Both the position numbers and the translations under genes were made by a program. A model generated the notes under the pieces. The model was not told the DNA's origin. It saw only the letters and a list, made by a program, of their open reading frames with translations, and did no database searches. Below are positions 1-19,273 of a stretch of DNA of 32,000 nucleotides, in pieces; the first letter of the stretch is position 1; every line of letters starts with the position of its first letter. Source of the DNA: Acholeplasma laidlawii PG-8A (GTDB lineage Bacteria > Bacillota_I > Bacilli_A > Acholeplasmatales > Acholeplasmataceae); assembly GCF_000018785.1 (NCBI RefSeq), contig NC_010163.1, forward strand, positions 60,001-92,000, given 5' to 3'.

Positions 1-787
1 TGCAGTATCTGCAGTCATCTATGCGATGTTATTACCAAACCAACTACATCTTTATGTGGTTGTTATGGGGGCTTTATTTGGTGCTGCAATCGGCAAAATG
101 ATTTTTGGTGGTTTAGGGATGAATATCTTTAACCCTGCAGCAGCTGGCCGTGTATTTATTGCACTAGCATTTACAACATTCTTCACAGGTTCTTATGGGT
201 TTATTGATGCTGCAGCAGGTGCTACAGCATTATCTACAAGTTTTCCTGAAGTATTAAATAGTTATTCACTAATCGATTTACTCGTTGGTAATATTCCGGG
301 TTCTATGGGTGAAATCAATTCCCTTGCTATTTTATTTGGTCTTGCTTATCTATTAATTAGAAAAAGTGCAGATTATAGACCTGTTTTATCAGGACTATTA
401 ATCTTTACAGCACTTGCTACAGTTGCAGGATTCATACTACACCCAACATTAGTATTTGAATATGTGATATTCCAATTATTATCTGGTGGTTTATTATTTG
501 GTCTAACCTTTATGATTACAGACCCTGCGACATCACCAATCACAAGACCAGGTCGTTGGTGGTTTGGTTTAATTGTTGGTTCATTAGTATTCTTTATTAG
601 AAGTTTTGGTAGTCTTCCAGAAGGTGTGGCGTTTGCTTTATTATTTGGTAACTTAATGGTACCTTTACTAGATTACCCAATGTGGGCAAACAACAGATTT
701 ACAAAGAAATTCTATATTAGCTTTAGTTTAGTATTTGTGGCTTTAGTAGCACTTACCTTCGTGATTTTAGGAGGTTACGCGATATGA
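1..787 (+). CDS. rnfD: Rnf/Nqr-type electron transport complex subunit D (RnfD/NqrB family), 5' end outside the window
   Basis: The frame is open from nt 2, with no stop before the first ATG at 26. Polytopic membrane protein. Family hallmarks are FIDAAAGATALS (flavinylation-type motif, nt 206-226) and MITDPATSP. The TGA stop overlaps the next start (ATGA at 784-787). Confidence 0.85.
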   Translation, partial: AVSAVIYAMLLPNQLHLYVVVMGALFGAAIGKMIFGGLGMNIFNPAAAGRVFIALAFTTFFTGSYGFIDAAAGATALSTSFPEVLNSYSLIDLLVGNIPGSMGEINSLAILFGLAYLLIRKSADYRPVLSGLLIFTALATVAGFILHPTLVFEYVIFQLLSGGLLFGLTFMITDPATSPITRPGRWWFGLIVGSLVFFIRSFGSLPEGVAFALLFGNLMVPLLDYPMWANNRFTKKFYISFSLVFVALVALTFVILGGYAI

Positions 788-1725
788 CAAAAGCAGTTAA
801 AAGCATCATTACATTAGCGGTTGTAGCTATTTTAGGTATTGGACTATCAATTGGTACGCACTTCATCTTTAATCCAATTAAAGAAGAACGTGCTAAACAA
901 GAAACTCTATCTATATTAGATGATTACTTTACAGGTGTTACAGACTTTGAAGCAAACAAGCTCGAAGTAATTGAAGGCGTTGAGATTTTAAGATCTGTTC
1001 GCGTTTATAAAAATGAAGATCCACTAGGTTATCTATATGAGGCAAATATTACAAATGATTTTGGTAATATGAAAGTTCGTTTAAGTGTGGATGTTAAAGA
1101 TGTTATTCAATCCATTGAGTTCTTAGAACTTAACCAAACAATGTACTTACCACAAACAACAAAAATGCTTGAAACATATGTATTAAGCAAGTTAAGTACA
1201 GATATTTTTGATGGTGCTGCTGGTGCAACATCCATCTCAAAAAATGATCTATCACACTTAATGAGTATGGTAGGATTACATCATGATAGAACAGATAAAT
1301 TTGAAATCCAAGCACCTTATAAAGATTTCTATGGTGATGACTACGTGATTTCAAATACAGAAGAACTATCCAACTCTGGTGCGACTATCAAGGTTGAAAC
1401 GATTGAAGGTTTAGGTGTAGTTTATACAATTACTAAATCAGGTATTTATCAAACAGATAGTACTCAAGAAAAATCAATTACACTTGTTCTTGCATTAAAT
1501 AATGATAATAAAATTATTGGTGTACTTTTACCAGCTGAGTTATATAACCACACTAAGGGTGGATTTATGACAAGTGCAATGGAATTTGCACAAAGTTTTA
1601 AAGATATGTCACTACTTGATGTAACAGATGGCAATGCTGGTGCAACAGGTGATGTTGTAGCACATAATTCAAGAACCTTAATCGAAGATATGGTGTTAAT
1701 TGTTCAGGGGGTACATATCTCATGA
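784..1725 (+). CDS. rnfG: Membrane-anchored RnfG/NqrC-like protein with two FMN-binding-type domains (313 aa)
   Basis: N-terminal TM helix (SIITLAVVAILGIGLSIG). Two FMN_bind-like halves each end in a D-G-x-A-G-A-T motif: DGAAGAT at nt 1210-1230 and DGNAGAT at nt 1627-1647. Start overlaps the rnfD stop. Confidence 0.8.
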   Translation: MTKAVKSIITLAVVAILGIGLSIGTHFIFNPIKEERAKQETLSILDDYFTGVTDFEANKLEVIEGVEILRSVRVYKNEDPLGYLYEANITNDFGNMKVRLSVDVKDVIQSIEFLELNQTMYLPQTTKMLETYVLSKLSTDIFDGAAGATSISKNDLSHLMSMVGLHHDRTDKFEIQAPYKDFYGDDYVISNTEELSNSGATIKVETIEGLGVVYTITKSGIYQTDSTQEKSITLVLALNNDNKIIGVLLPAELYNHTKGGFMTSAMEFAQSFKDMSLLDVTDGNAGATGDVVAHNSRTLIEDMVLIVQGVHIS

Positions 1726-2639
1726 AAAAAGAAAATTTAATTTTAGTATTAATGTTTGGTCTAATGTTGCTTATTAGTGTTATTGCATTAAGTTTTGATT
1801 ATCTATTCCCAACATCAGTTGTGGATAAGATGTTTAATCAAAATGTTAATGTTGTGAATGTCAAACCAGTCATTGATGCTGAGTTTAATGAAATATTAGA
1901 ACAAGCAGAAGTTACTACATTAGATGGTAAAAAAATTGCTGATCTATATACAGTCAGAGTTGATCATACATACTTCTATTTAGAATTATATGTAGGTATT
2001 GATTTAGATGGTAAAGTCTATGCAAGAGATAAATATGTTAGAACTAAAGACGATACATCTTCTAGTTACTTCCCACTTGTTCGTGCGTACCTATTAAAAA
2101 ACTATAACGGTCTATATTACGAAAACATACAGTTTATTGATGGTGCTGCAGGCGCAACAACGATTGTAGTATCAAGAACTATCATTAAAAATGCTGTAAG
2201 TAAAGTTGTAGTCTTTCACGTAGGTGAAGAAGAAGATTACATCGAAACATTACTTGGTGGTAAATACACATTAAATAATGAATCAACAGACGGTAATGTA
2301 ACAACGTATGATGTAACCTACAATAATGCAGACTATACAGTCTATATGGCATCAGATACAGGTACATACTATGATTTCCAAAGTGTAAATGAAGGTAGTA
2401 TTACAATTTATGTTGCAGTCGATAGTGATGGTAAAATTACACATACATTATTACCTGAAGCATTATACGGCCATTCTGGTGGAAACTTCTATAGTGCAAC
2501 AAATACCTTCTTAAGTGGAGTTATCGGTTATAATTTAAATGATCCAATGCCAGATTCAACAACTGGACCAACTACAAACTCAAACGGTTCACAATACTTA
2601 GTAAATCAGTTATTACTAGATATTCAAGGAGGGGCTTAA
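1722..2639 (+). CDS. Second membrane-anchored RnfG/NqrC-like protein with two FMN-binding-type domains (305 aa)
   Basis: N-terminal TM helix (LILVLMFGLMLLISVIALSF). First half carries IDGAAGATT (nt 2139-2159). Second half carries a degenerate DSTTGPT (nt 2554-2574). ATGA overlap with the preceding gene. Domain layout parallels ORF 784-1725. Confidence 0.75.
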   Translation: MKKENLILVLMFGLMLLISVIALSFDYLFPTSVVDKMFNQNVNVVNVKPVIDAEFNEILEQAEVTTLDGKKIADLYTVRVDHTYFYLELYVGIDLDGKVYARDKYVRTKDDTSSSYFPLVRAYLLKNYNGLYYENIQFIDGAAGATTIVVSRTIIKNAVSKVVVFHVGEEEDYIETLLGGKYTLNNESTDGNVTTYDVTYNNADYTVYMASDTGTYYDFQSVNEGSITIYVAVDSDGKITHTLLPEALYGHSGGNFYSATNTFLSGVIGYNLNDPMPDSTTGPTTNSNGSQYLVNQLLLDIQGGA

Positions 2640-2640
2640 G

Positions 2641-3219
2641 ATGAATAAAAACAATTTAAAACCATTTATTTTATTAAGCATCTTACCACTTATCTATTTA
2701 GCAAATACATTAGAAACTGCGCTTTTTATGGGGTTAGTTTATGTTGTATTAGCACTTATCATTTATGCTGGTGGTCTATTAATTAATAAATTTAGTGAAG
2801 GTAGAATGCGTTCTTATGCATATATCTTATTAACAGCTTCAATTGTAACAATCATTATGACAGTATTAGGTACATATTTCTCATTAAATCAATTAATGGG
2901 TATTTACTTAGCACTTACAATATTTACAATTCCTCAACTCAGATTAGAAACAGTTGAAGAAAAATCTATTGTGGATCATGGCTTTATGATTCTGGTAGGT
3001 TTTGTAGCACTCATACTCATTGGTTTCTTAAGAGAGTTCTTAGGTACTGGAAGTATTAGTTTACTAGCATTTGGATTAGACACTGTACAAGTGTTTGATG
3101 CTAAATTTGGTATTGCTATCTTAAAAGACAACTCAGGTGGTTTCATCTTAGCAGGATTTATCTTTGCAATCATCAATGCCATACCTTTTGTAAAGGAGGA
3201 TAAAGCAGATGTTATTTAA
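2641..3219 (+). CDS. rnfE: RnfE/NqrD-like membrane subunit (Rnf-Nqr family), cysteine-free
   Basis: 192-aa polytopic protein. N-terminal FILLSILPLIYLANTLETALFMGL aligns by eye with canonical LVQLLGLCPLLAVT...ALGLGL, and GFLREFLGTGSI aligns with GSLREIIGNGTL. It sits between the G-like and A-like genes. Confidence 0.7.
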   Translation: MNKNNLKPFILLSILPLIYLANTLETALFMGLVYVVLALIIYAGGLLINKFSEGRMRSYAYILLTASIVTIIMTVLGTYFSLNQLMGIYLALTIFTIPQLRLETVEEKSIVDHGFMILVGFVALILIGFLREFLGTGSISLLAFGLDTVQVFDAKFGIAILKDNSGGFILAGFIFAIINAIPFVKEDKADVI

Positions 3220-3766
3220 TTTATTATCTAGTTTATTAGGTGCTGCAATCCTTTCAAATGTTATTTTACAAGGGGTTGGATTAGAAGCAATTAAAGATCG
3301 TGAAATCAGAGTTAAACCAGTATTGGTTAAATCTTCAATGATTAGTTTATTAGCACTTGTTGTTTTCTTAATTGATTATGTTGTGTTAGAATTTGTTTTA
3401 GTACCAATTGATATGGCATTTTTAAACATCATCGTATTAGCTTTATTAATGATTGGTGTGAATGAACTTTATAAAATTGTTACTGATAAAACAAAGTTTG
3501 CATTACCTAAAGAAGAATTATTTGGATTACACTCTATTGTGATTATTGTTGGATTTATGGGGTTGTCAAATGTTGCATTTGATGAAGCATTTATCCAAGT
3601 TGTTGGTTCATTAATAGGCTTTGTTGGTCTATCCATATTACTTACAATGATTCAATCTAGAATGCGTGTAAATCCGCTTATCAAGTCATTTAAAGGATTA
3701 CCAATTCTACTCATTATACTGGGCTTAATTGCTTTAGTATTTAGTGGGTTAGCAGGATTATTTTAA
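3209..3766 (+). CDS. rnfA: RnfA/NqrE-like membrane subunit (Rnf-Nqr family), cysteine-free
   Basis: 185-aa polytopic protein. N-terminal AILSNVILQGVGL resembles canonical VLVNNFVLVKFLGLCP. C-terminal FKGLPILLIILGLIALVFSGLAGL resembles [31 protein letters not shown] RBS at 3193-3199. 11-nt overlap with the previous gene. Confidence 0.7.
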   Translation: MLFNLLSSLLGAAILSNVILQGVGLEAIKDREIRVKPVLVKSSMISLLALVVFLIDYVVLEFVLVPIDMAFLNIIVLALLMIGVNELYKIVTDKTKFALPKEELFGLHSIVIIVGFMGLSNVAFDEAFIQVVGSLIGFVGLSILLTMIQSRMRVNPLIKSFKGLPILLIILGLIALVFSGLAGLF

Positions 3767-3790
3767 AAACATATAAAAAGGAAAAAGAAC

Positions 3791-4873
3791 ATGAAAAAAA
3801 TATGGGCAGTTATCAACTTAATATTAATCAGTGTTCTTTTTTCTGCTTGTACACAACAAGCAATTGATAACAGTTTAGCCATATCATCTATGGATACATT
3901 TATTGGTGGCACAGTACATGCACCAAAAGCTGTTTGGGATAAAGCGGATAAAAAACTAAAAGAAATGTATATGCTCTACCACGAGTTAACCGATAACTAT
4001 AGAGGTTATGAGGGTGTACAAGGTGTTTACTATATTAATAATTTAGTAGAAACAACGAAAACTGACCAAACAGTTGAGATTAAAAAAGAACTTTATGATC
4101 TATTAAGTTTAGGTGTAGAACTCTATGAATTTACAGATGGATACTTTGATATGTCCATTGGTAAGATCATCGATGTTTGGAAAAACTTAATTGATGAAAG
4201 TGATTATACGGGTCAAGAAATACCTAAAGAAGATATCGATTATGCGATAAACTTAGTGGATGCTATTGATATCATTGAAGATCCGGTGATTTTAAGTGAA
4301 GTAGATAATAAATATTACGTGACACTTAAATATGGTGCAAAACTAGACTTAGGTGCGCTTGCTAAAGGGTATGTCACTCAGTTAGCAGCAGATTATTTAA
4401 CGGATTTAGGTTTAAGTACCTATCTCATTAGTGGTGGTGGCTCATCCATGTTATATGGTGAAGGTAATCCAAAAACTGAAGATGGTAGTTACAGAACAGG
4501 ACTTATTAATCCACAAGATGTTATTGATAACTTAGATATTATTGGATATCGACCTAAAAATTACGGTATATATACAGCTAAAAATTATAACTTCACAACA
4601 TCAGGAAGTTATAATCAATTTATCTTAAGTGAAGGTGTGATGTATCATCACATTGTCTCACCTAAAACAAAACGTCCGGTAAATCATTATCTAACACTTT
4701 CTATTGTTGGAACAGATGCAGGATTTAATGATGGTTTATCCACAGCATTATTTAGTATGCCACCTGAAGTGTTAGAACAGTTTTTAGAAACGAATGGTTA
4801 TGAGGTCTATACATATTTATTTAATAATACTTATAAATCCTATAATCAATCTGAAAACTTTAGACCACTTTAA
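3791..4873 (+). CDS. apbE: FAD:protein FMN transferase (ApbE/Ftp family) lipoprotein
   Basis: Signal peptide with a lipobox-like LFSAC (Cys20, nt 3848-3850). ApbE-type motifs LDLGALAKGY, TTSGSY and HHIVSPKT. Located immediately after the rnf-like genes. Confidence 0.85.
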   Translation: MKKIWAVINLILISVLFSACTQQAIDNSLAISSMDTFIGGTVHAPKAVWDKADKKLKEMYMLYHELTDNYRGYEGVQGVYYINNLVETTKTDQTVEIKKELYDLLSLGVELYEFTDGYFDMSIGKIIDVWKNLIDESDYTGQEIPKEDIDYAINLVDAIDIIEDPVILSEVDNKYYVTLKYGAKLDLGALAKGYVTQLAADYLTDLGLSTYLISGGGSSMLYGEGNPKTEDGSYRTGLINPQDVIDNLDIIGYRPKNYGIYTAKNYNFTTSGSYNQFILSEGVMYHHIVSPKTKRPVNHYLTLSIVGTDAGFNDGLSTALFSMPPEVLEQFLETNGYEVYTYLFNNTYKSYNQSENFRPL

Positions 4874-4885
4874 TTAGGTGATGAT

Positions 4886-5350
4886 ATGAAGAAAAGAGAT
4901 TATATCATCATTGGTGGACTATTAGTTGTTGTAGGTATACTTTATATTTGGGTTACATATTTTGGTGCCCCAACTGGTAGTATCGCATACGTTTATCAAG
5001 ATAATGATGTGGTAATTAGTGTAAACTTTGATGACAATAGTTATGAGTTAACACCACAAACGATTGATAATAACTATCCAGTTGTTACAGATCCTGTACC
5101 TGATGAGGGTGGCGATGTTGCTTTCATTATTAAGGGTGCTTATATCCATGAAGGTGAAAGAACGTTAGTCTATATCGAAATTGATTGGGATAAAAAGGCA
5201 ATACGTATACAAAAAGATGAAACACCAAGACAAATTGGTGTTAGACGTAATTGGTATGATGGCACAGGTTTACCTGCTGTATCCTTACCAAGTAAAGTAT
5301 TTATCGTATTTGAAACAGTAGAAGATGACGGGATTGATGGTGTTGTATGA
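4886..5350 (+). CDS. Membrane-anchored NusG domain II-like protein
   Basis: N-terminal TM helix followed by a beta-rich domain. The C-terminal stretch KAIRIQKDETPRQIGVRRNWYDGTGLPAVSLPSKVFIVFE matches, from memory, the family pattern (...CPD..C...G....CLP...) with the Cys positions replaced. It lies between apbE and a Gx-transporter gene, which I recall as typical for this family. Confidence 0.5.
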   Translation: MKKRDYIIIGGLLVVVGILYIWVTYFGAPTGSIAYVYQDNDVVISVNFDDNSYELTPQTIDNNYPVVTDPVPDEGGDVAFIIKGAYIHEGERTLVYIEIDWDKKAIRIQKDETPRQIGVRRNWYDGTGLPAVSLPSKVFIVFETVEDDGIDGVV

Positions 5351-5856
5351 AAAACTTAAATAAAATTACAACATTGTCGATGTTAATTGCAGTAGCAATT
5401 GTCTTAAACGTTATTGAAATCTCAATTAATGTCATACCGGTACCAGGTGCAAAAATTGGATTTGCAAATATCGTAACGGTCATTGTCTTATATATGTATG
5501 GATTTAGATCTGCTTCACTTGTTACAATTTTAAGAGTATTCTTAGTAGGGTTACTCTCAAGATCGTTTACCATACCATTTTGGATGGGCTTGGGTGGTGC
5601 AATTGTATCTATTACAGTGATGGGTATCTTTAAAAACTGGATTAAGCTACACTTAATAAGTGTCTCTGTCTTAGGTGCTATTACACATACATTAGGACAA
5701 GTGATTGTAGGGATATATCTATTAGAGACAGACCTACTCATACTCTACTTACCACTGATGTTACTTATTAGCATACCTGCCGGTATTTTAATCGGTATCA
5801 TCGCTCAGAGATTCTTTAAAACATTTAACCGTAGTAAATATCAACGTTCATTATAA
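5347..5856 (+). CDS. Gx transporter family membrane protein (heptaprenyl diphosphate synthase component I-like fold)
   Basis: 169 aa with about 5 TM helices. The N-terminal KITTLSMLIAVAIVLNVIE...GAKIGFANIVTVIVLY pattern is typical of this family. 4-nt overlap with the preceding NusG_II-like gene. Confidence 0.55.
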   Translation: MKNLNKITTLSMLIAVAIVLNVIEISINVIPVPGAKIGFANIVTVIVLYMYGFRSASLVTILRVFLVGLLSRSFTIPFWMGLGGAIVSITVMGIFKNWIKLHLISVSVLGAITHTLGQVIVGIYLLETDLLILYLPLMLLISIPAGILIGIIAQRFFKTFNRSKYQRSL

Positions 5857-5960: not shown

Positions 5961-6015
5961 AACTATTGCGAAACTTACTATGAGTATTATTTTCTCATGG
6001 CGGAAGGAGAATTCT

Positions 6016-7378: not shown

Positions 7379-7489
7379 ACATCCCTATAGGGTATTCTCA
7401 TTCAATATTAAGGATCGAACCTGGTCAGGCCTTGATTGGAGCAGCCATAAGATACCTGATATGTGGATGAGGATACCCTATGGGGATGT
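7379..7489 (+). ncRNA. ffs: Signal recognition particle RNA (small bacterial 4.5S/scRNA type)
   Basis: Long terminal helix: ACATCCCTATAGGGTATTCTCAT (7379-) pairs with ATGAGGATACCCTATGGGGATGT (-7489) using G-U pairs. The apical domain IV-type motif is CCTGGTCAGG...GGAGCAGCCATAAG. Followed by TTTTATT. Position downstream of tadA matches Bacillus. Confidence 0.85.
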
Positions 7490-10224: not shown

Positions 10225-12078
10225 ATGATTTATGATGGCATTATTGTAGGTGCTGGACACGCCGGTGTCGAAGCTGCACTTGCTATGGCAAAAATGAAAC
10301 TTAATACTTTACTCATTACAGGCGATCTAACAAAGGTTGCTACTTTGCCATGTAATCCATCAATTGGTGGACCTGCTAAAGGTATTGTAGTTAGAGAAAT
10401 TGACGCACTTGGCGGTCAAATGGCAAAGTCAGCAGACTTAAGTCAAATTCAAATGAAGATGTTAAATCCTTCAAAAGGTCCAGCAGTTCGTGCACTACGC
10501 GCTCAAATTGATAAATTAAAATATCCTAAAGTGATGTTAGATGTGTTACAAAACACACCGAATCTAACTTTACTTCAAGGATTTGTTGACACATTAATTG
10601 TTGAAGACAATACCGTTAAAGGTGTAAACCTAGAAGATGGTAGTCAAGTATTTGCCCAAACTGTAATTATTACAACAGGTACATATTTAGGTTCTCAAAT
10701 TTTAATTGGTCACGAAAAAACATCAAGTGGTCCAAATGGTGAACGTACAACACGTGGTATTTCTAATCAACTTAAAAACTTAGGTTTTGAAATGCTTAGA
10801 CTAAAAACGGGTACACCACCAAGAATTGCTAGAGATTCTATCGACTATTCTAAAACTGTACCACAACCAGGTGATGGTGTTTTCCAAACATTTTCACATG
10901 ATTCACCAATCACTGACTTAGGTCACCAAGAATTTAGCTACTTAATCCACACATCACCAGATACTAAAGATATTATATTTAATAACTTAGATGCATCAGC
11001 AATGTATGGTGGTGTTGTAGAAGGTGTTGGTCCAAGATACTGTCCATCTATTGAAGACAAATTTGTTAGATTTAAAGATAAAGACAGACATCAAATCTTT
11101 ATTGAACCAGAATCCATGGATTTAAATGAAATGTATATCCAAGGATTATCCACATCGATGCCAAAACATATTCAAGAGCAAATGGTAAGATCTTTACCTG
11201 GTATGGAAAACGCACGTATTGTGCGTTATGCATACGCAATCGAATATGATGCAATTAATCCAAGACAACTCTATCAATCCTTAGAGACTAAAGTCATCCA
11301 TAATCTATTTTGTGCTGGTCAAATTAACGGTACATCAGGTTATGAAGAAGCTGCTGGTCAAGGTTTAATGGCAGGTATTAATGCAGGATTAAAAGTACAG
11401 GGTAAAAAACCACTCGTATTAAAAAGAGATGAAGCATATATTGGTGTATTAATTGACGACCTTATTACTAAGGGAACTAGTGAACCATATAGACTTTTAA
11501 CCTCACGTGCAGAACATAGACTGTTATTAAGAAACGATAATGCCGATATAAGATTAAGAGATTATGGCTATCAAATCGGTTTAGTCGATGATGCAACGTA
11601 TGAAAGATTCGAACATAAGAAAATAGCATTAAAAGAAATGATTGAAAGAGCAAAATCAACAAAGATTAACCCAACTGAGGAAAATCTAAACTATTTAGCT
11701 TCGGTAAATTCAAGCCCGATTTATGAAGGCGTTACAGTCTTTAAATTACTTGAAAGACCTGAACTTAAGATAGAAACCCTTAAACATTTTTTACCATCAG
11801 ACTATAATCATGAAATCTATGAACAATTAGAAATATATATTAAGTATGATGGATATATTGAAAAAGCTAGAAGAGAAGCGGATAAATTATTACGCTATGA
11901 ATCTAGATTTATTCCAAACGATATTAATTATCATAGTATTCACAACATATCTGCAGAAGCTAAAGAAAAATTAAGTAAGATTAAACCAGAAACATTAGGT
12001 CAAGCAACTAGAATCCTAGGTGTTGGACCAACGGATGTATCCATGTTACTCGTTTATCTAGAAGCCAAGAATGCTTAA
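10225..12078 (+). CDS. mnmG: tRNA uridine 5-carboxymethylaminomethyl modification enzyme MnmG (GidA)
   Basis: FAD-binding motif [11 protein letters not shown], plus [11 protein letters not shown] and [18 protein letters not shown]. Confidence 0.96.
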
Positions 12079-13227: not shown

Positions 13228-13311
13228 GGAGGGGTAGCGAAGTGGCTAAACGCGGCAGACTGTAAATCTGTTCCTAACGGTTCGGCAGTTCGAATCTGCC
13301 CCCCTCCACCA
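13228..13311 (+). tRNA. tRNA-Tyr (GTA), class II with long variable arm, CCA encoded
   Basis: Acceptor stem GGAGGGG/CCCCTCC, anticodon loop CTGTAAA, T-loop TTCGAAT. Confidence 0.93.
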
Positions 13312-13361
13312 TTCTAATTTATAAGTTTATAACGGCCTTGTGCATTTGTTGAAAAAAGTTG

Positions 13362-13390
13362 TTGACAAGGTTATTTTATAATGATAGAAT
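13362..13390 (+). promoter_or_regulatory. rRNA operon promoter
   Basis: TTGACA (13362-13367), 17-nt spacer, extended -10 TGaTAGAAT (13382-13390). Confidence 0.6.
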
Positions 13391-13422
13391 GATTAAGCGC
13401 TCGAACAAAGAGACGCAAAATT

Positions 13423-13453
13423 GAGTCTTTGAAAACTGAATGATGATGAACAA
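13423..13453 (+). other. 5' half of the 16S precursor processing stem
   Basis: GAGTCTTTGAAAACTGAATGATGATGAACAA is nearly complementary to 15068-15097. Confidence 0.7.
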
Positions 13454-13496
13454 GAGAAAACAAAAATAAGAGCTAAAATCAAAACAAAACATAAAT

Positions 13497-15002
<1,506 letters not shown>

Positions 15003-15067
15003 AAGGAGAAAGGCTAACTAACACTTAGCACAAGATGACTACTAGTAAGTAGTAATATTCTCTAAAT

Positions 15068-15097
15068 TTGTTCATCATATTCAGTTTTGAAAGACTT
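15068..15097 (+). other. 3' half of the 16S precursor processing stem (in the 16S-23S spacer)
   Basis: TTGTTCATCATATTCAGTTTTGAAAGACTT pairs with 13423-13453, with one bulge and two mismatches. Confidence 0.7.
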
Positions 15098-15130
15098 AAA
15101 GTAATTTAAGTGTTTCAAGAAGTAAAGAAA

Positions 15131-15166
15131 GTCTTTGAAAAGTAGATAAATGATGTCTGAAAAGAA
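15131..15166 (+). other. 5' half of the 23S precursor processing stem
   Basis: GTCTTTGAAAAGTAGATAAATGATGTCTGAAAAGAA is complementary to 18042-18079, apart from an internal loop. Confidence 0.65.
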
Positions 15167-15170
15167 ATAA

Positions 15171-18021
<2,851 letters not shown>

Positions 18022-18041
18022 TCGTGATGATTCGCATCACA

Positions 18042-18079
18042 TTCTTTTCAGAGAAAATCATTTATCTAGTTTTGAGAGC
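18042..18079 (+). other. 3' half of the 23S precursor processing stem
   Basis: TTCTTTTCAGAGAAAATCATTTATCTAGTTTTGAGAGC pairs with 15131-15166. Confidence 0.65.
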
Positions 18080-18085
18080 ATTATG

Positions 18086-18197
<112 letters not shown>

Positions 18198-18225
18198 ATA
18201 TCATCTCAATTTTATACCATTTTTT

Positions 18226-18301
18226 GGAGGATTAGCTCAGTTGGGAGAGCACCTGCCTTACAAGCAGGGGGTCGGCGGTTCAAGCCCGTCATCCTCCACC
18301 A
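18226..18301 (+). tRNA. tRNA-Val (TAC)
   Basis: Cloverleaf with acceptor GGAGGAT/ATCCTCC and anticodon loop CTTACAA. CCA encoded. Confidence 0.93.
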
Positions 18302-18309
18302 CTTTACAA

Positions 18310-18385
18310 GCCGAAATAGCTCAATCGGTAGAGCAACTGATTTGTAATCAGTAGGTTGCGGGTTCAATTCCTGTTTTCGGCACCA
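18310..18385 (+). tRNA. tRNA-Thr (TGT)
   Basis: Acceptor GCCGAAA/TTTCGGC and anticodon loop TTTGTAA. CCA encoded. Confidence 0.93.
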
Positions 18386-18392
18386 CTACAAT

Positions 18393-18468
18393 GTCCCGTT
18401 AGCTCAGGTGGTAGAGCACTTGACTTTTAATCAAGGTGTCGATGGTTCGAGTCCATCACGGGACACCA
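18393..18468 (+). tRNA. tRNA-Lys (TTT)
   Basis: Acceptor GTCCCGT/ACGGGAC and anticodon loop CTTTTAA. CCA encoded. Confidence 0.93.
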
Positions 18469-18483
18469 CTTTTATAATTTAAT

Positions 18484-18570
18484 GCCCGGGTGGTGAAATC
18501 GGTAGACACGCAGGACTTAAAATCCTGTGGCATAAAAGCCATGTCGGTTCAAGTCCGACCCCGGGCACCA
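18484..18570 (+). tRNA. tRNA-Leu (TAA), class II
   Basis: Acceptor GCCCGGG/CCCGGGC, anticodon loop CTTAAAA and a long variable arm. CCA encoded. Confidence 0.93.
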
Positions 18571-18592
18571 CTAAAAAATTAATTAAATTGTT

Positions 18593-18668
18593 GGGGCTTT
18601 AGCTCAGCTGGGAGAGCGCCTGCCTTGCACGCAGGAGGTCAGCGGTTCGATCCCGCTAAGCTCCACCA
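18593..18668 (+). tRNA. tRNA-Ala (TGC)
   Basis: Acceptor GGGGCTT/AAGCTCC with the G3:U70 identity pair, and anticodon loop CTTGCAC. CCA encoded. Confidence 0.93.
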
Positions 18669-18713
18669 GTTTACGATTTTAATCAAGTATCAAAAAGTTT
18701 CTAACCAATATAT

Positions 18714-18790
18714 GGCGGTGTAGCTCAGCTGGCTAGAGCGTGCGGTTCATACCCGCAAGGTCGAGGGTTCAAGTCCCCCCGCCGCTACCA
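18714..18790 (+). tRNA. tRNA-Met (CAT), elongator type
   Basis: GGCGGTGTAGCTCAGCTGGCTAGAGCG... with anticodon loop TTCATAC. It closely resembles the Bacillus elongator Met as I remember it. Confidence 0.8.
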
Positions 18791-18794
18791 GTAC

Positions 18795-18871
18795 GGACCC
18801 GTAGCTCAGTTGGTTAGAGCTACCGGCTCATAACCGGTCGGTCGTTGGTTCGAGTCCAACCGGGTCCACCA
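18795..18871 (+). tRNA. tRNA-Ile2 (CAT, lysidine-dependent), assigned by similarity
   Basis: GGACCCGTAGCTCAGTTGGTTAGAGC...GGCTCATAACC... resembles Bacillus tRNA-Ile(CAU) and the tRNA-Ile(GAT) body. It lies in the Met-Ile-Ser order. Confidence 0.7.
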
Positions 18872-18893
18872 GTATTAACTTTTAAATAAACGT

Positions 18894-18982
18894 GGAGGAA
18901 TACCCAAGAGGCTGAAGGGATCGGTCTTGAAAACCGACAGGGTGTAAAAGCCGCGGGGGTTCAAATCCCTCTTCCTCCGCCA
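18894..18982 (+). tRNA. tRNA-Ser (TGA), class II
   Basis: Acceptor GGAGGAA/TTCCTCC, anticodon loop CTTGAAA and a long variable arm. CCA encoded. Confidence 0.93.
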
Positions 18983-19003
18983 CTACAATTTTAAAACCAG
19001 TTA

Positions 19004-19012
19004 TGGTATAAT
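19004..19012 (+). promoter_or_regulatory. Candidate internal extended -10 promoter ahead of tRNA-fMet
   Basis: TGgTATAAT at 19004-19012 in the 40-nt Ser-fMet spacer. The same TGGTATAAT occurs in the yccF-like promoter at 19335-19343. Confidence 0.4.
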
Positions 19013-19022
19013 AACAACATAT

Positions 19023-19099
<77 letters not shown>

Positions 19100-19114
19100 A
19101 ATAAAATTTAAAAC

Positions 19115-19190
19115 GGTCCGGTGGTGTAGGGGTTAACATGCCTGCCTGTCACGCAGGAGATCGCGGGTTCAAATCCCGTCCGGACCGCCA
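19115..19190 (+). tRNA. tRNA-Asp (GTC)
   Basis: Acceptor GGTCCGG/CCGGACC and anticodon loop CTGTCAC. CCA encoded. Confidence 0.93.
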
Positions 19191-19197
19191 TTTTAGT

Positions 19198-19273
19198 GGC
19201 TCTGTAGCTCAGTCGGTAGAGCAGTGGCCTGAAGAGCCTCGTGTCAGCGGTTCGATTCCGCTTGGAGCCACCA
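19198..19273 (+). tRNA. tRNA-Phe (GAA)
   Basis: Acceptor GGCTCTG/TGGAGCC (two G-U pairs) and anticodon loop CTGAAGA. There is a U28-U42 mismatch in the anticodon stem. CCA encoded. Confidence 0.88.

Follow-up and report, generated by a model that had tools for sequence, protein, structure and literature searches.

In the Rnf complex (RnfCDGEAB; structures 7ZC6, 8AHX, and 9ERI), four cysteines of RnfA and RnfE bind a [2Fe-2S] cluster that carries electrons from RnfB, or from NqrF in NQR, to the flavin carried by RnfG or NqrC on the outer side of the membrane (PMC12174285). A one-way flow of electrons from NAD(P)H to the outside has been proposed for two-subunit "NQR/RNF-like" systems, and a side branch to outside acceptors for multi-flavinylated RnfGs (PMC8238504, PMC11334425). 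In Listeria, EetB (PF07456) is the S-component of an energy-coupling factor (ECF) transporter and is needed for FAD export and for the flavinylation of PplA by the ApbE-like FmnB (Rivera-Lugo et al., PMC9973259). In the same survey, 3,328 genomes have eetB next to eetA and 2,169 have it next to apbE; in 572 Clostridia it adjoins Rnf genes, and PF07009 (NusG_II) is labelled EetA in its Data Set S1 (PMC9973259). Here we describe an Rnf-type operon of Acholeplasma laidlawii PG-8A, which lies at the start of the analyzed stretch of 32,000 nt (the window; NC_010163.1, 60,001-92,000). Coordinates are positions in the window unless a locus number is given. The operon probably encodes an Rnf complex minus its ferredoxin branch, which would conduct electrons one way from NADH to surface flavins instead of working as a ferredoxin:NAD+ pump.

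The list of open reading frames (ORFs) places eight of them in positions 1-5,856, all on the + strand. The first, D-like ORF is open at the window start and ends at 787.

1..787, + strand: 3' part of rnfD, 262 codons (PF03116, 8.7e-65)
784..1725, + strand: G1, 313 aa, RnfG paralogue with two FMN-binding-type domains (fold match to RnfG/NqrC; FMN_bind 0.0054, below threshold)
1722..2639, + strand: G2, 305 aa, second two-domain RnfG paralogue (BLASTP to G1, 1e-12)
2641..3219, + strand: RnfE-like six-helix membrane subunit, 192 aa (PF02508, 7e-10; PDB 7zc6_E, 3.9e-8)
3209..3766, + strand: RnfA-like membrane subunit, 185 aa (NCBIfam rnfA 1e-7, below cut-off; PDB 7zc6_A, 1.2e-7)
3767..3790, no strand: rnfA-apbE spacer, 24 nt, containing a ribosome-binding site only (sequence read directly)
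3791..4873, + strand: ApbE-type FAD:protein FMN transferase, predicted surface lipoprotein, 360 aa (PF02424, 6.6e-43; lipobox Cys20)
4886..5350, + strand: EetA-like membrane protein with a NusG_II domain, 154 aa (PF07009, 5.4e-10)
5347..5856, + strand: EetB-like ECF S-component, 169 aa (PF07456, Hpre_diP_synt_I, 3.8e-34; ECF_trnsprt, 1.5e-6)

A first-pass annotation of this DNA, made from the letters and their ORFs, had described eight co-oriented, overlapping genes in this order, and the ORF list, direct reading of the sequence, and the family matches all agree with it. ATGA overlaps occur at 784, 1722, and 5347, and an 11-nt overlap at 3209. A scan for promoters and terminators inside the operon gave no signal above shuffle expectation. 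Positions 1-5,856 are identical, over all 5,856 bases, to A. laidlawii LS483439.1, and G1 is unchanged on 16 contigs, LS483439.1 among them. The arrangement is kept in at least 12 genomes or contigs and thus is not due to chance. A phage or mobile-element origin was rejected in view of the uniform composition and the conserved synteny with glyA, rpmE, and tdk.

The neighborhood comparison that the first-pass annotation had suggested found the operon conserved in relatives; what that annotation had overlooked is the decisive feature, namely that neither the E-like nor the A-like protein contains a single cysteine. In alignments to solved RnfE (7zc6_E, 9eri_E), solved RnfA (7zc6_A), and relatives, all four [2Fe-2S] ligand columns are occupied by other residues. 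In the E-like protein one cysteine is replaced by leucine and the other by isoleucine or a gap; in the A-like protein both ligand positions are replaced. The ligand columns of the A/E pair read L/I and E/I-V. Canonical relatives have cysteine at all four columns, and the two ligands each of RnfA and RnfE that characterize Rnf are thus missing here. With the four cluster ligands gone, the electron route from RnfB across the membrane via RnfA/E is closed. Both proteins are still placed in the Rnf-Nqr family, as the first-pass annotation had assigned ORFs 2641-3766. The E-like protein matches PF02508, and the A-like protein, which has no Pfam match, is recognized by the PDB RnfA and by the NCBIfam models rnfA (1e-7) and RsxA (1.4e-8), both below cut-off. 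Clostridium tetanomorphum supplies the nearest solved homologues, its RnfE at 3.9e-8 and its RnfA at 1.2e-7. The motifs REFLGTG and SGGF persist in the A/E proteins.

The electron-input side of the operon is complete. Full-length RnfD has 356 aa, and its gene begins 284 bp before the window (L001 8934-10004). It carries the covalent-FMN motif DAAAGAT (Thr170 of the full protein), which is kept in orthologues, and thus retains the flavinylation site of RnfD in Rnf. Directly upstream lies rnfC (L001 7633-8931), whose product of 432 aa matches RnfC_N, Complex1_51K, and Fer4 in Pfam. Its cofactor motifs are intact: GLGGSGFPT for nucleotide and FMN, and two CxxCxxCxxxCP motifs, which together make up the NADH, FMN, and two-[4Fe-4S] equipment of RnfC. 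The gene is upstream in six A. laidlawii contigs, which hold no rnfB up to 10 kb on either side, and the same negative result was obtained within 10 kb either side in L001-L015, L052, L056, and L060. The question whether C- and B-type subunits lie beyond the window start is thus answered positively for the former and, over these 10 kb, negatively for the latter. The view of the locus as a divergent, flavin-centered Rnf derivative without RnfB beside rnfA is upheld by the family matches and by the 24-nt rnfA-apbE spacer.

The gene order pyrophosphatase - YebC - (helix-turn-helix protein) - glyA (serine hydroxymethyltransferase) - rnfC is common to Acholeplasmataceae (L001 4052-7616; also L052 and L056). 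The stop codon of glyA lies 16 nt ahead of rnfC, and co-transcription of the two may be possible. Two assemblies carry nonsense codons in an operon that is otherwise identical: codon 70 of rnfC is changed from TCA to TAA in A. laidlawii strain 8195 (NZ_CP126461.2, L007 ~5983-5985), and codon 182 of G2 from TAY to TAA in GCA_001729645.1 (L003, within 10939-11856). Both could be natural knock-outs or sequencing errors.

Word-indexed searches started from G1 and from the E-like protein found nothing beyond close Acholeplasma relatives, and an exhaustive profile search and a genome scan were needed to go further. The scan with the E-like profile gave 44 loci, whose genes were labelled by phmmer. 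In the anaerobic, free-living Acholeplasmataceae (Mariniplasma, Peloplasma, and many metagenome-assembled genomes, MAGs), the order is C-D-G1-G2-E-A, followed by two small genes and then apbE-NusG_II-PF07456. G1 has ~320 aa and G2 ~330 or 193 aa in these organisms, and E and A have exactly two ligand cysteines each. The second of the small genes encodes a mini-RnfB of 106 aa (101-106 aa when Izimaplasma is included), which consists of a membrane helix and a PF04060 Fe-S domain (9e-13), matches positions 2-79 of RnfB models, and has no ferredoxin-like [4Fe-4S] domains. It is preceded in Acholeplasmataceae by a 70-aa membrane protein with four cysteines (L026 11154-11366, followed by mini-RnfB at 11363-11683; L017-L048 are alike). 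No Pfam or NCBIfam family matched the 70-aa protein; our guess is a role in cluster insertion or an NqrM-like role in maturation.

Acholeplasma proper (A. laidlawii, A. granularum, A. oculi, A. equifetale, and several MAGs), together with L052, L056, and L060, lacks both small genes and all four cysteines. The distance between rnfA and apbE reflects this difference: it amounts to 9-28 nt in the genome-derived loci of the Acholeplasma clade, to ~90 nt in L056, and to 122 nt in the L004 read assembly, where the apbE call is shorter, as opposed to 534-603 nt with two ORFs in RnfB-bearing relatives. None of the twelve cysteine-free loci (L001/L007-L015, L052, L056, L060) has a mini-RnfB or the 70-aa cysteine protein. 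Conversely, both are present in all 29 Acholeplasmataceae loci that have the ligand cysteines and span the rnfA-apbE junction; four Izimaplasma loci and one Methanosarcinales locus have RnfB only and no 70-aa protein. Among loci spanning this junction, cysteines and RnfB are kept or lost together without exception. A tree of RnfC+D groups L056 with the complete systems, and the E and A proteins of L053, L054, and L056 are closer to canonical E/A than to those of Acholeplasma. On these grounds, RnfB and the cysteines were probably lost at least twice independently, as judged from the sequences. The clade may thus be regarded as a natural evolutionary experiment, in which RnfB, its small cysteine-rich partner, and the four ligands vanished together, probably more than once. 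This joint disappearance supports a tight functional coupling between them. No cultured Acholeplasma is among the named relatives with mini-RnfB.

The same comparison corrects two points of the first-pass annotation. It had seen ApbE in the place of RnfB, a role that we rejected: relatives that keep mini-RnfB carry the same apbE-NusG_II-PF07456 trio right behind it. It had also taken the doubled G subunits for a special trait of this locus. Judging from their distribution, both the doubling of the G subunits and the apbE trio go back to the ancestor of Acholeplasmataceae and also occur in lineages whose electron loop is complete, and multi-flavinylated RnfGs had already been described (PMC8238504).

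In complete systems, no subunit is better conserved than E and A, which are on a par with RnfC (75-84% identity). Between A. laidlawii and the complete systems, identity is 68% for RnfC, 55% for RnfD, and only ~30% for E and A. The ratio of nonsynonymous to synonymous substitution rates (dN/dS) in the Acholeplasma clade is 0.07-0.48 for E and 0.07-0.15 for A, as compared with 0.03-0.09 for E/A of complete systems, and 0.02-0.15 for RnfC and RnfD together (RnfC alone 0.02-0.08). By these measures the cofactor-less A/E pair is relaxed yet still under purifying selection.

The two G proteins are membrane-anchored RnfG paralogues and not lipoproteins. The AlphaFold (AF2) model of G1 (predicted local distance difference test, pLDDT, 84) has an N-terminal helix followed by two repeated beta-sheet-plus-helix units. 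Its best matches in the PDB are RnfG (7zc6_G, 8rb9_G) and NqrC, with an E-value of 8.8e-5 and a probability of 1.0 for 7zc6_G. A PDB sequence search with the G1 profile found no meaningful match, and fold comparison alone succeeded. The model of G2 is weaker (pLDDT 72); RnfG chains are still picked with a probability of 0.99, but with E-values of 0.04-0.08. Because BLASTP between the halves of G1 is not significant (E 0.09), the internal duplication is deduced from the predicted structure and the motif positions and not from a sequence repeat.

Each G protein contains two D-x-x-x-G-x-[T/S] sites. The predicted flavinylation sites of G1 are Thr149 (DGAAGAT) and Thr288 (DGNAGAT); G147 and T149 do not vary among its orthologues, which also conserve D282 and G286. 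In G2, the predicted first site is Thr146 (DGAAGAT) and the second, Thr284 (DSTTGPT), is degenerate. Thus, site 1 is invariant in both proteins and site 2 is relaxed, reading GAT in G1 and GPT in G2. Together, G1 and G2 are predicted to offer three covalent-FMN sites of canonical type and a fourth, degenerate one at the outer membrane face, so that the membrane-anchored, flavinylated RnfG subunit of Rnf is represented here by two copies of two domains each. The comparison with Listeria PplA, drawn in the first-pass annotation, holds only as an analogy, but the anchoring of G1 and G2 sets them apart from this lipoprotein. An invariant L-P-x3-Y-x-H-x2-G motif is found in the second domain of both paralogues (G1 L249, P250, Y254, H256, G259) and is kept in G1 orthologues; it is located at window positions 1534-1560 (G1 residues 251-259) and 2454-2480 (G2 residues 245-253) and could be involved in binding of flavin or of the acceptor. 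In an uncultured Acholeplasma MAG (CAZRKJ010000036.1; L010 5026-7242), G1 has grown to 738 aa in a "beads-on-a-string" manner and shows four or more flavinylation-type motifs (residues 143, 282, 424, and 566). This lengthening in one relative fits a role of G1 as a flavin relay.

Behind the spacer, the operon contains the ApbE/FmnB, EetA, and EetB components of a Listeria-type locus for extracellular electron transfer (EET); EetA is a conserved partner of EetB. The lipobox of ApbE noted in the first-pass annotation is confirmed: its Cys20 is the sole cysteine of the protein and is conserved at position ~20 in orthologues. Given the family matches, the lipobox, and the roles reported for the homologues (PMC9973259), apbE-eetA-eetB is therefore seen as the module that supplies flavin and attaches it to RnfD, G1, and G2.

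Without RnfB and the A/E cluster, the sole continuous cofactor chain would lead from NADH through RnfC and RnfD to G1/G2. Electrons would move along it one way, from NADH to RnfC (FMN and two [4Fe-4S] clusters), on to RnfD (riboflavin and covalent FMN), and to the FMNs of G1/G2. The three to four covalent FMNs on the latter would pass the electrons to an extracellular or membrane-surface acceptor, which may be O2, Fe(III), or another oxidant. The out-and-back loop that starts and ends in the cytoplasm would no longer be possible. Such an outward flow would regenerate NAD+ in this fermentative, wall-less bacterium. Attachment of the FMNs by ApbE would take place outside the cell, with EetB exporting the FAD required, and the cysteine-free A/E pair may be kept as a structural scaffold or as a residual element of the ion path. 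The earlier idea of an outward-facing flavin relay thus appears strengthened by the loss of the four RnfA/E cluster ligands.

Several points weigh against an Rnf complex reduced to one-way electron export. The direction of the electrons and the acceptor are inferred from sequence and not from biochemistry, and the neighborhood contains no candidate for a terminal reductase. RnfB is absent from the locus (10 kb each side), and for the whole genome the missing cultured Acholeplasma among the named mini-RnfB relatives is the only hint. G1 has only the below-threshold Pfam match to FMN_bind (0.0054), and G2 has no Pfam match at all; the G2 model is mediocre, and site 2 of G2, with GPT in place of GA[T/S], may perhaps not be flavinylated. 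The A/E pair is retained under purifying selection without a demonstrated reason. Finally, the nonsense codons in rnfC and G2 of two assemblies suggest that the system may be dispensable in culture.

These nonsense codons would also suit a decaying remnant, an operon without function since the loss of its ferredoxin side and on the way to pseudogenization, as would the fast evolution of E and A and the complete loss of Rnf from the phytoplasmas, the sister group. We consider this improbable, because at least 10 species-level lineages have all nine genes intact and in synteny, dN/dS lies at 0.02-0.3 across the genes (0.02-0.08 for RnfC, up to 0.48 for E), the flavinylation threonines and RnfC cofactor motifs are conserved, and one lineage expanded G1 instead of losing it. 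Another reading, an ordinary ferredoxin:NAD+ Rnf pump with rnfB elsewhere in the chromosome, is harder still to maintain. The replacement of all four A/E ligands would interrupt the only known route from RnfB to RnfG, ligand loss coincides with rnfB loss in every informative locus, E and A are down to ~30% identity, and cultured Acholeplasma are absent from the named mini-RnfB relatives. We therefore give the pump very little credence, even though the literature counts Acholeplasma among the organisms with "the Rnf complex", the locus has all but one of the six canonical subunit types, and the RnfB search covers 10 kb on either side. An inward flow, with surface flavins drawing electrons from a donor outside the cell and NAD+ being reduced by RnfC, seems just as remote. 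A sugar fermenter has to reoxidize NADH and has no need of a further supply, the neighborhood encodes no system for an external low-potential donor, and analogous flavinylated systems are read as electron exporters. What speaks for inward flow is that Rnf is described as reversible in principle (PMC12174285) and that nothing in the sequence fixes the direction.

Two other explanations concern the A/E pair and ion transport. RnfC-D-G1-G2 might move the electrons and the cysteine-free A/E pair might act separately as a redox-independent carrier of an ion or solute. RnfA-E resemble alternating-access symporters, and a Na+ path has been proposed there (PMC12174285); moreover, A/E are under purifying selection without a cofactor, and REFLGTG and SGGF persist. 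However, there is no evidence for any substrate, the A/E genes are still translationally coupled in the operon by the 11-nt overlap, and structural docking for G1/G2 would account for their retention equally well, so that such a split of functions is unlikely. A tentative proposal, of rather low probability, is that the system would be the main membrane NADH dehydrogenase of a quinone- and cytochrome-poor, flavin-terminated chain of Acholeplasma. A relay of four to five flavins would then reduce O2 or extracellular oxidants, and Na+ or H+ would be moved via RnfD alone. If true, this would make the complex a minimal Rnf/Nqr pump found in nature and would bear on the dispute over the ion path, that is, RnfD/NqrB versus RnfA-E. 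A membrane-bound NADH oxidase with FMN and Fe-S centers is known from classical studies of Acholeplasma, and the operon would offer a candidate gene set for this enzyme; literature searches for the oxidase or for a "flavin-terminated" chain yielded no usable account.

Iron-sulfur-free A/E pairs may be more widespread. Cysteine is lacking at both ligand columns in ~50 of the best 150 cluster representatives of the exhaustive profile search. On an unrelated contig (Logan ERR14822392_6520; L059 3617-8849), genes for subunits I and II of a cytochrome bd oxidase are directly followed by four Rnf-type genes, which encode an RnfD::FMN_bind fusion (496 aa), a cysteine-free RnfE-like protein, a cysteine-free RnfA-like protein, and a second RnfD-like protein. 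Outside the operon, the window contains housekeeping genes, including (within 7389-7482 and 13228-19270) a small signal recognition particle RNA, one tRNA, a run of 11 tRNA genes, and a 16S-23S-5S rRNA operon at 13497-18197 that accounts for a rise in G+C.

If Rnf without its ferredoxin branch is the correct reading, as seems likely, the annotation of the Acholeplasma "Rnf complex" has to be corrected, since a transfer between ferredoxin and NAD+ would be beyond it. Metabolic models in which it acts as a ferredoxin:NAD+ pump or as a transhydrogenase would then be wrong for the Acholeplasma clade. The organism would also provide a culturable, genetically tractable test system for RnfC-D-G without the A/E cluster, in which the strain with the rnfC nonsense codon may serve as a control. 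Such a system could help to decide whether ion translocation by Rnf/Nqr needs RnfA-E or only RnfD (debated in PMC12174285). In the papers covered by our literature search, the operon is named simply "the Rnf complex", and there is no mention of an Acholeplasma operon that lacks rnfB or the cysteines.

Among the known systems, Rnf is the closest. The A. laidlawii operon is homologous and collinear with rnfC-D-G-E-A, shares the NADH/FMN/Fe-S module of RnfC, the covalent-FMN site of RnfD, the RnfG fold, and the dependence on ApbE, and is clearly derived from the rnfCDG(G)EAB operon that the anaerobic Acholeplasmataceae possess. It differs in lacking RnfB and the A/E [2Fe-2S] ligands, and thus any ferredoxin-side input or output, in having two RnfG paralogues with two FMN-type domains each, and in the low identity of E/A (~30%). 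Multi-flavinylated RnfGs in complete RNF clusters (Meheust et al. 2021) likewise have extra FMN-binding domains, and the anaerobic relatives of Acholeplasma fit this description. There, however, the flavins form a side branch beside the ferredoxin loop, whereas in A. laidlawii the branch alone is left. The "NQR/RNF-like" two-subunit systems (Meheust et al. 2021, PMC8238504; PMC11334425) share the proposed one-way transfer from NAD(P)H to extracytosolic flavin via the RnfD/RnfG half. They are defined by a single fusion protein, with PF03116 in its N-terminal part and a PF00175 NAD-binding domain in its C-terminal part, which is accompanied by an FMN_bind protein (PMC8238504). RnfD of A. laidlawii, with 356 aa and PF03116 only, is no such fusion: NADH enters via a separate and complete RnfC and not via a fused PF00175 (NqrF-type) domain, RnfD keeps the flavinylation site that is absent in the NQR/RNF-like subunit, and the vestigial A/E pair is kept. 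The origins differ as well, Mollicutes here as opposed to Actinobacteria and the Candidate Phyla Radiation (CPR). For Meheust et al., an RNF cluster had to contain RnfB (PMC8238504), and the Acholeplasma clade would therefore escape both of their categories; the supplements of the 2021 study that we examined contain no Acholeplasma rows.

Flavin-based EET of Listeria (Ndh2, DmkA/B, EetA, EetB, FmnA, FmnB, PplA) has in common with the operon the lipoprotein transferase of the ApbE/FmnB type, EetA, EetB, and a surface protein with two covalent FMNs, the last being predicted here. In A. laidlawii, in contrast, electrons would cross the membrane via RnfC/RnfD, and the flavoproteins are helix-anchored RnfG paralogues instead of the lipoprotein PplA. 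The genes called up to 10 kb away on either side include no Ndh2, DmkA/DmkB (demethylmenaquinone), or FmnA (ECF-T). The operon may add a third way in which flavin-based, one-way export of electrons has evolved. It does not belong to NQR itself, an assignment that was rejected: the locus has no NqrF-type gene (FAD and [2Fe-2S], PF00175), and its first subunit is the cofactor-bearing RnfC and not the cofactor-less NqrA. An rnfB-less rnfCDGEA intermediate has been postulated on the way to Na+-NQR (Reyes-Prieto et al. 2014, PMC4014512). The A. laidlawii operon, which lost rnfB and kept the C-D-G-E-A order, is a living rnfB-less example of such an arrangement. NQR kept the A/E (NqrE/D) cluster and gained NqrF, whereas the A. 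laidlawii lineage lost the cluster and made no gain on the cytoplasmic side.

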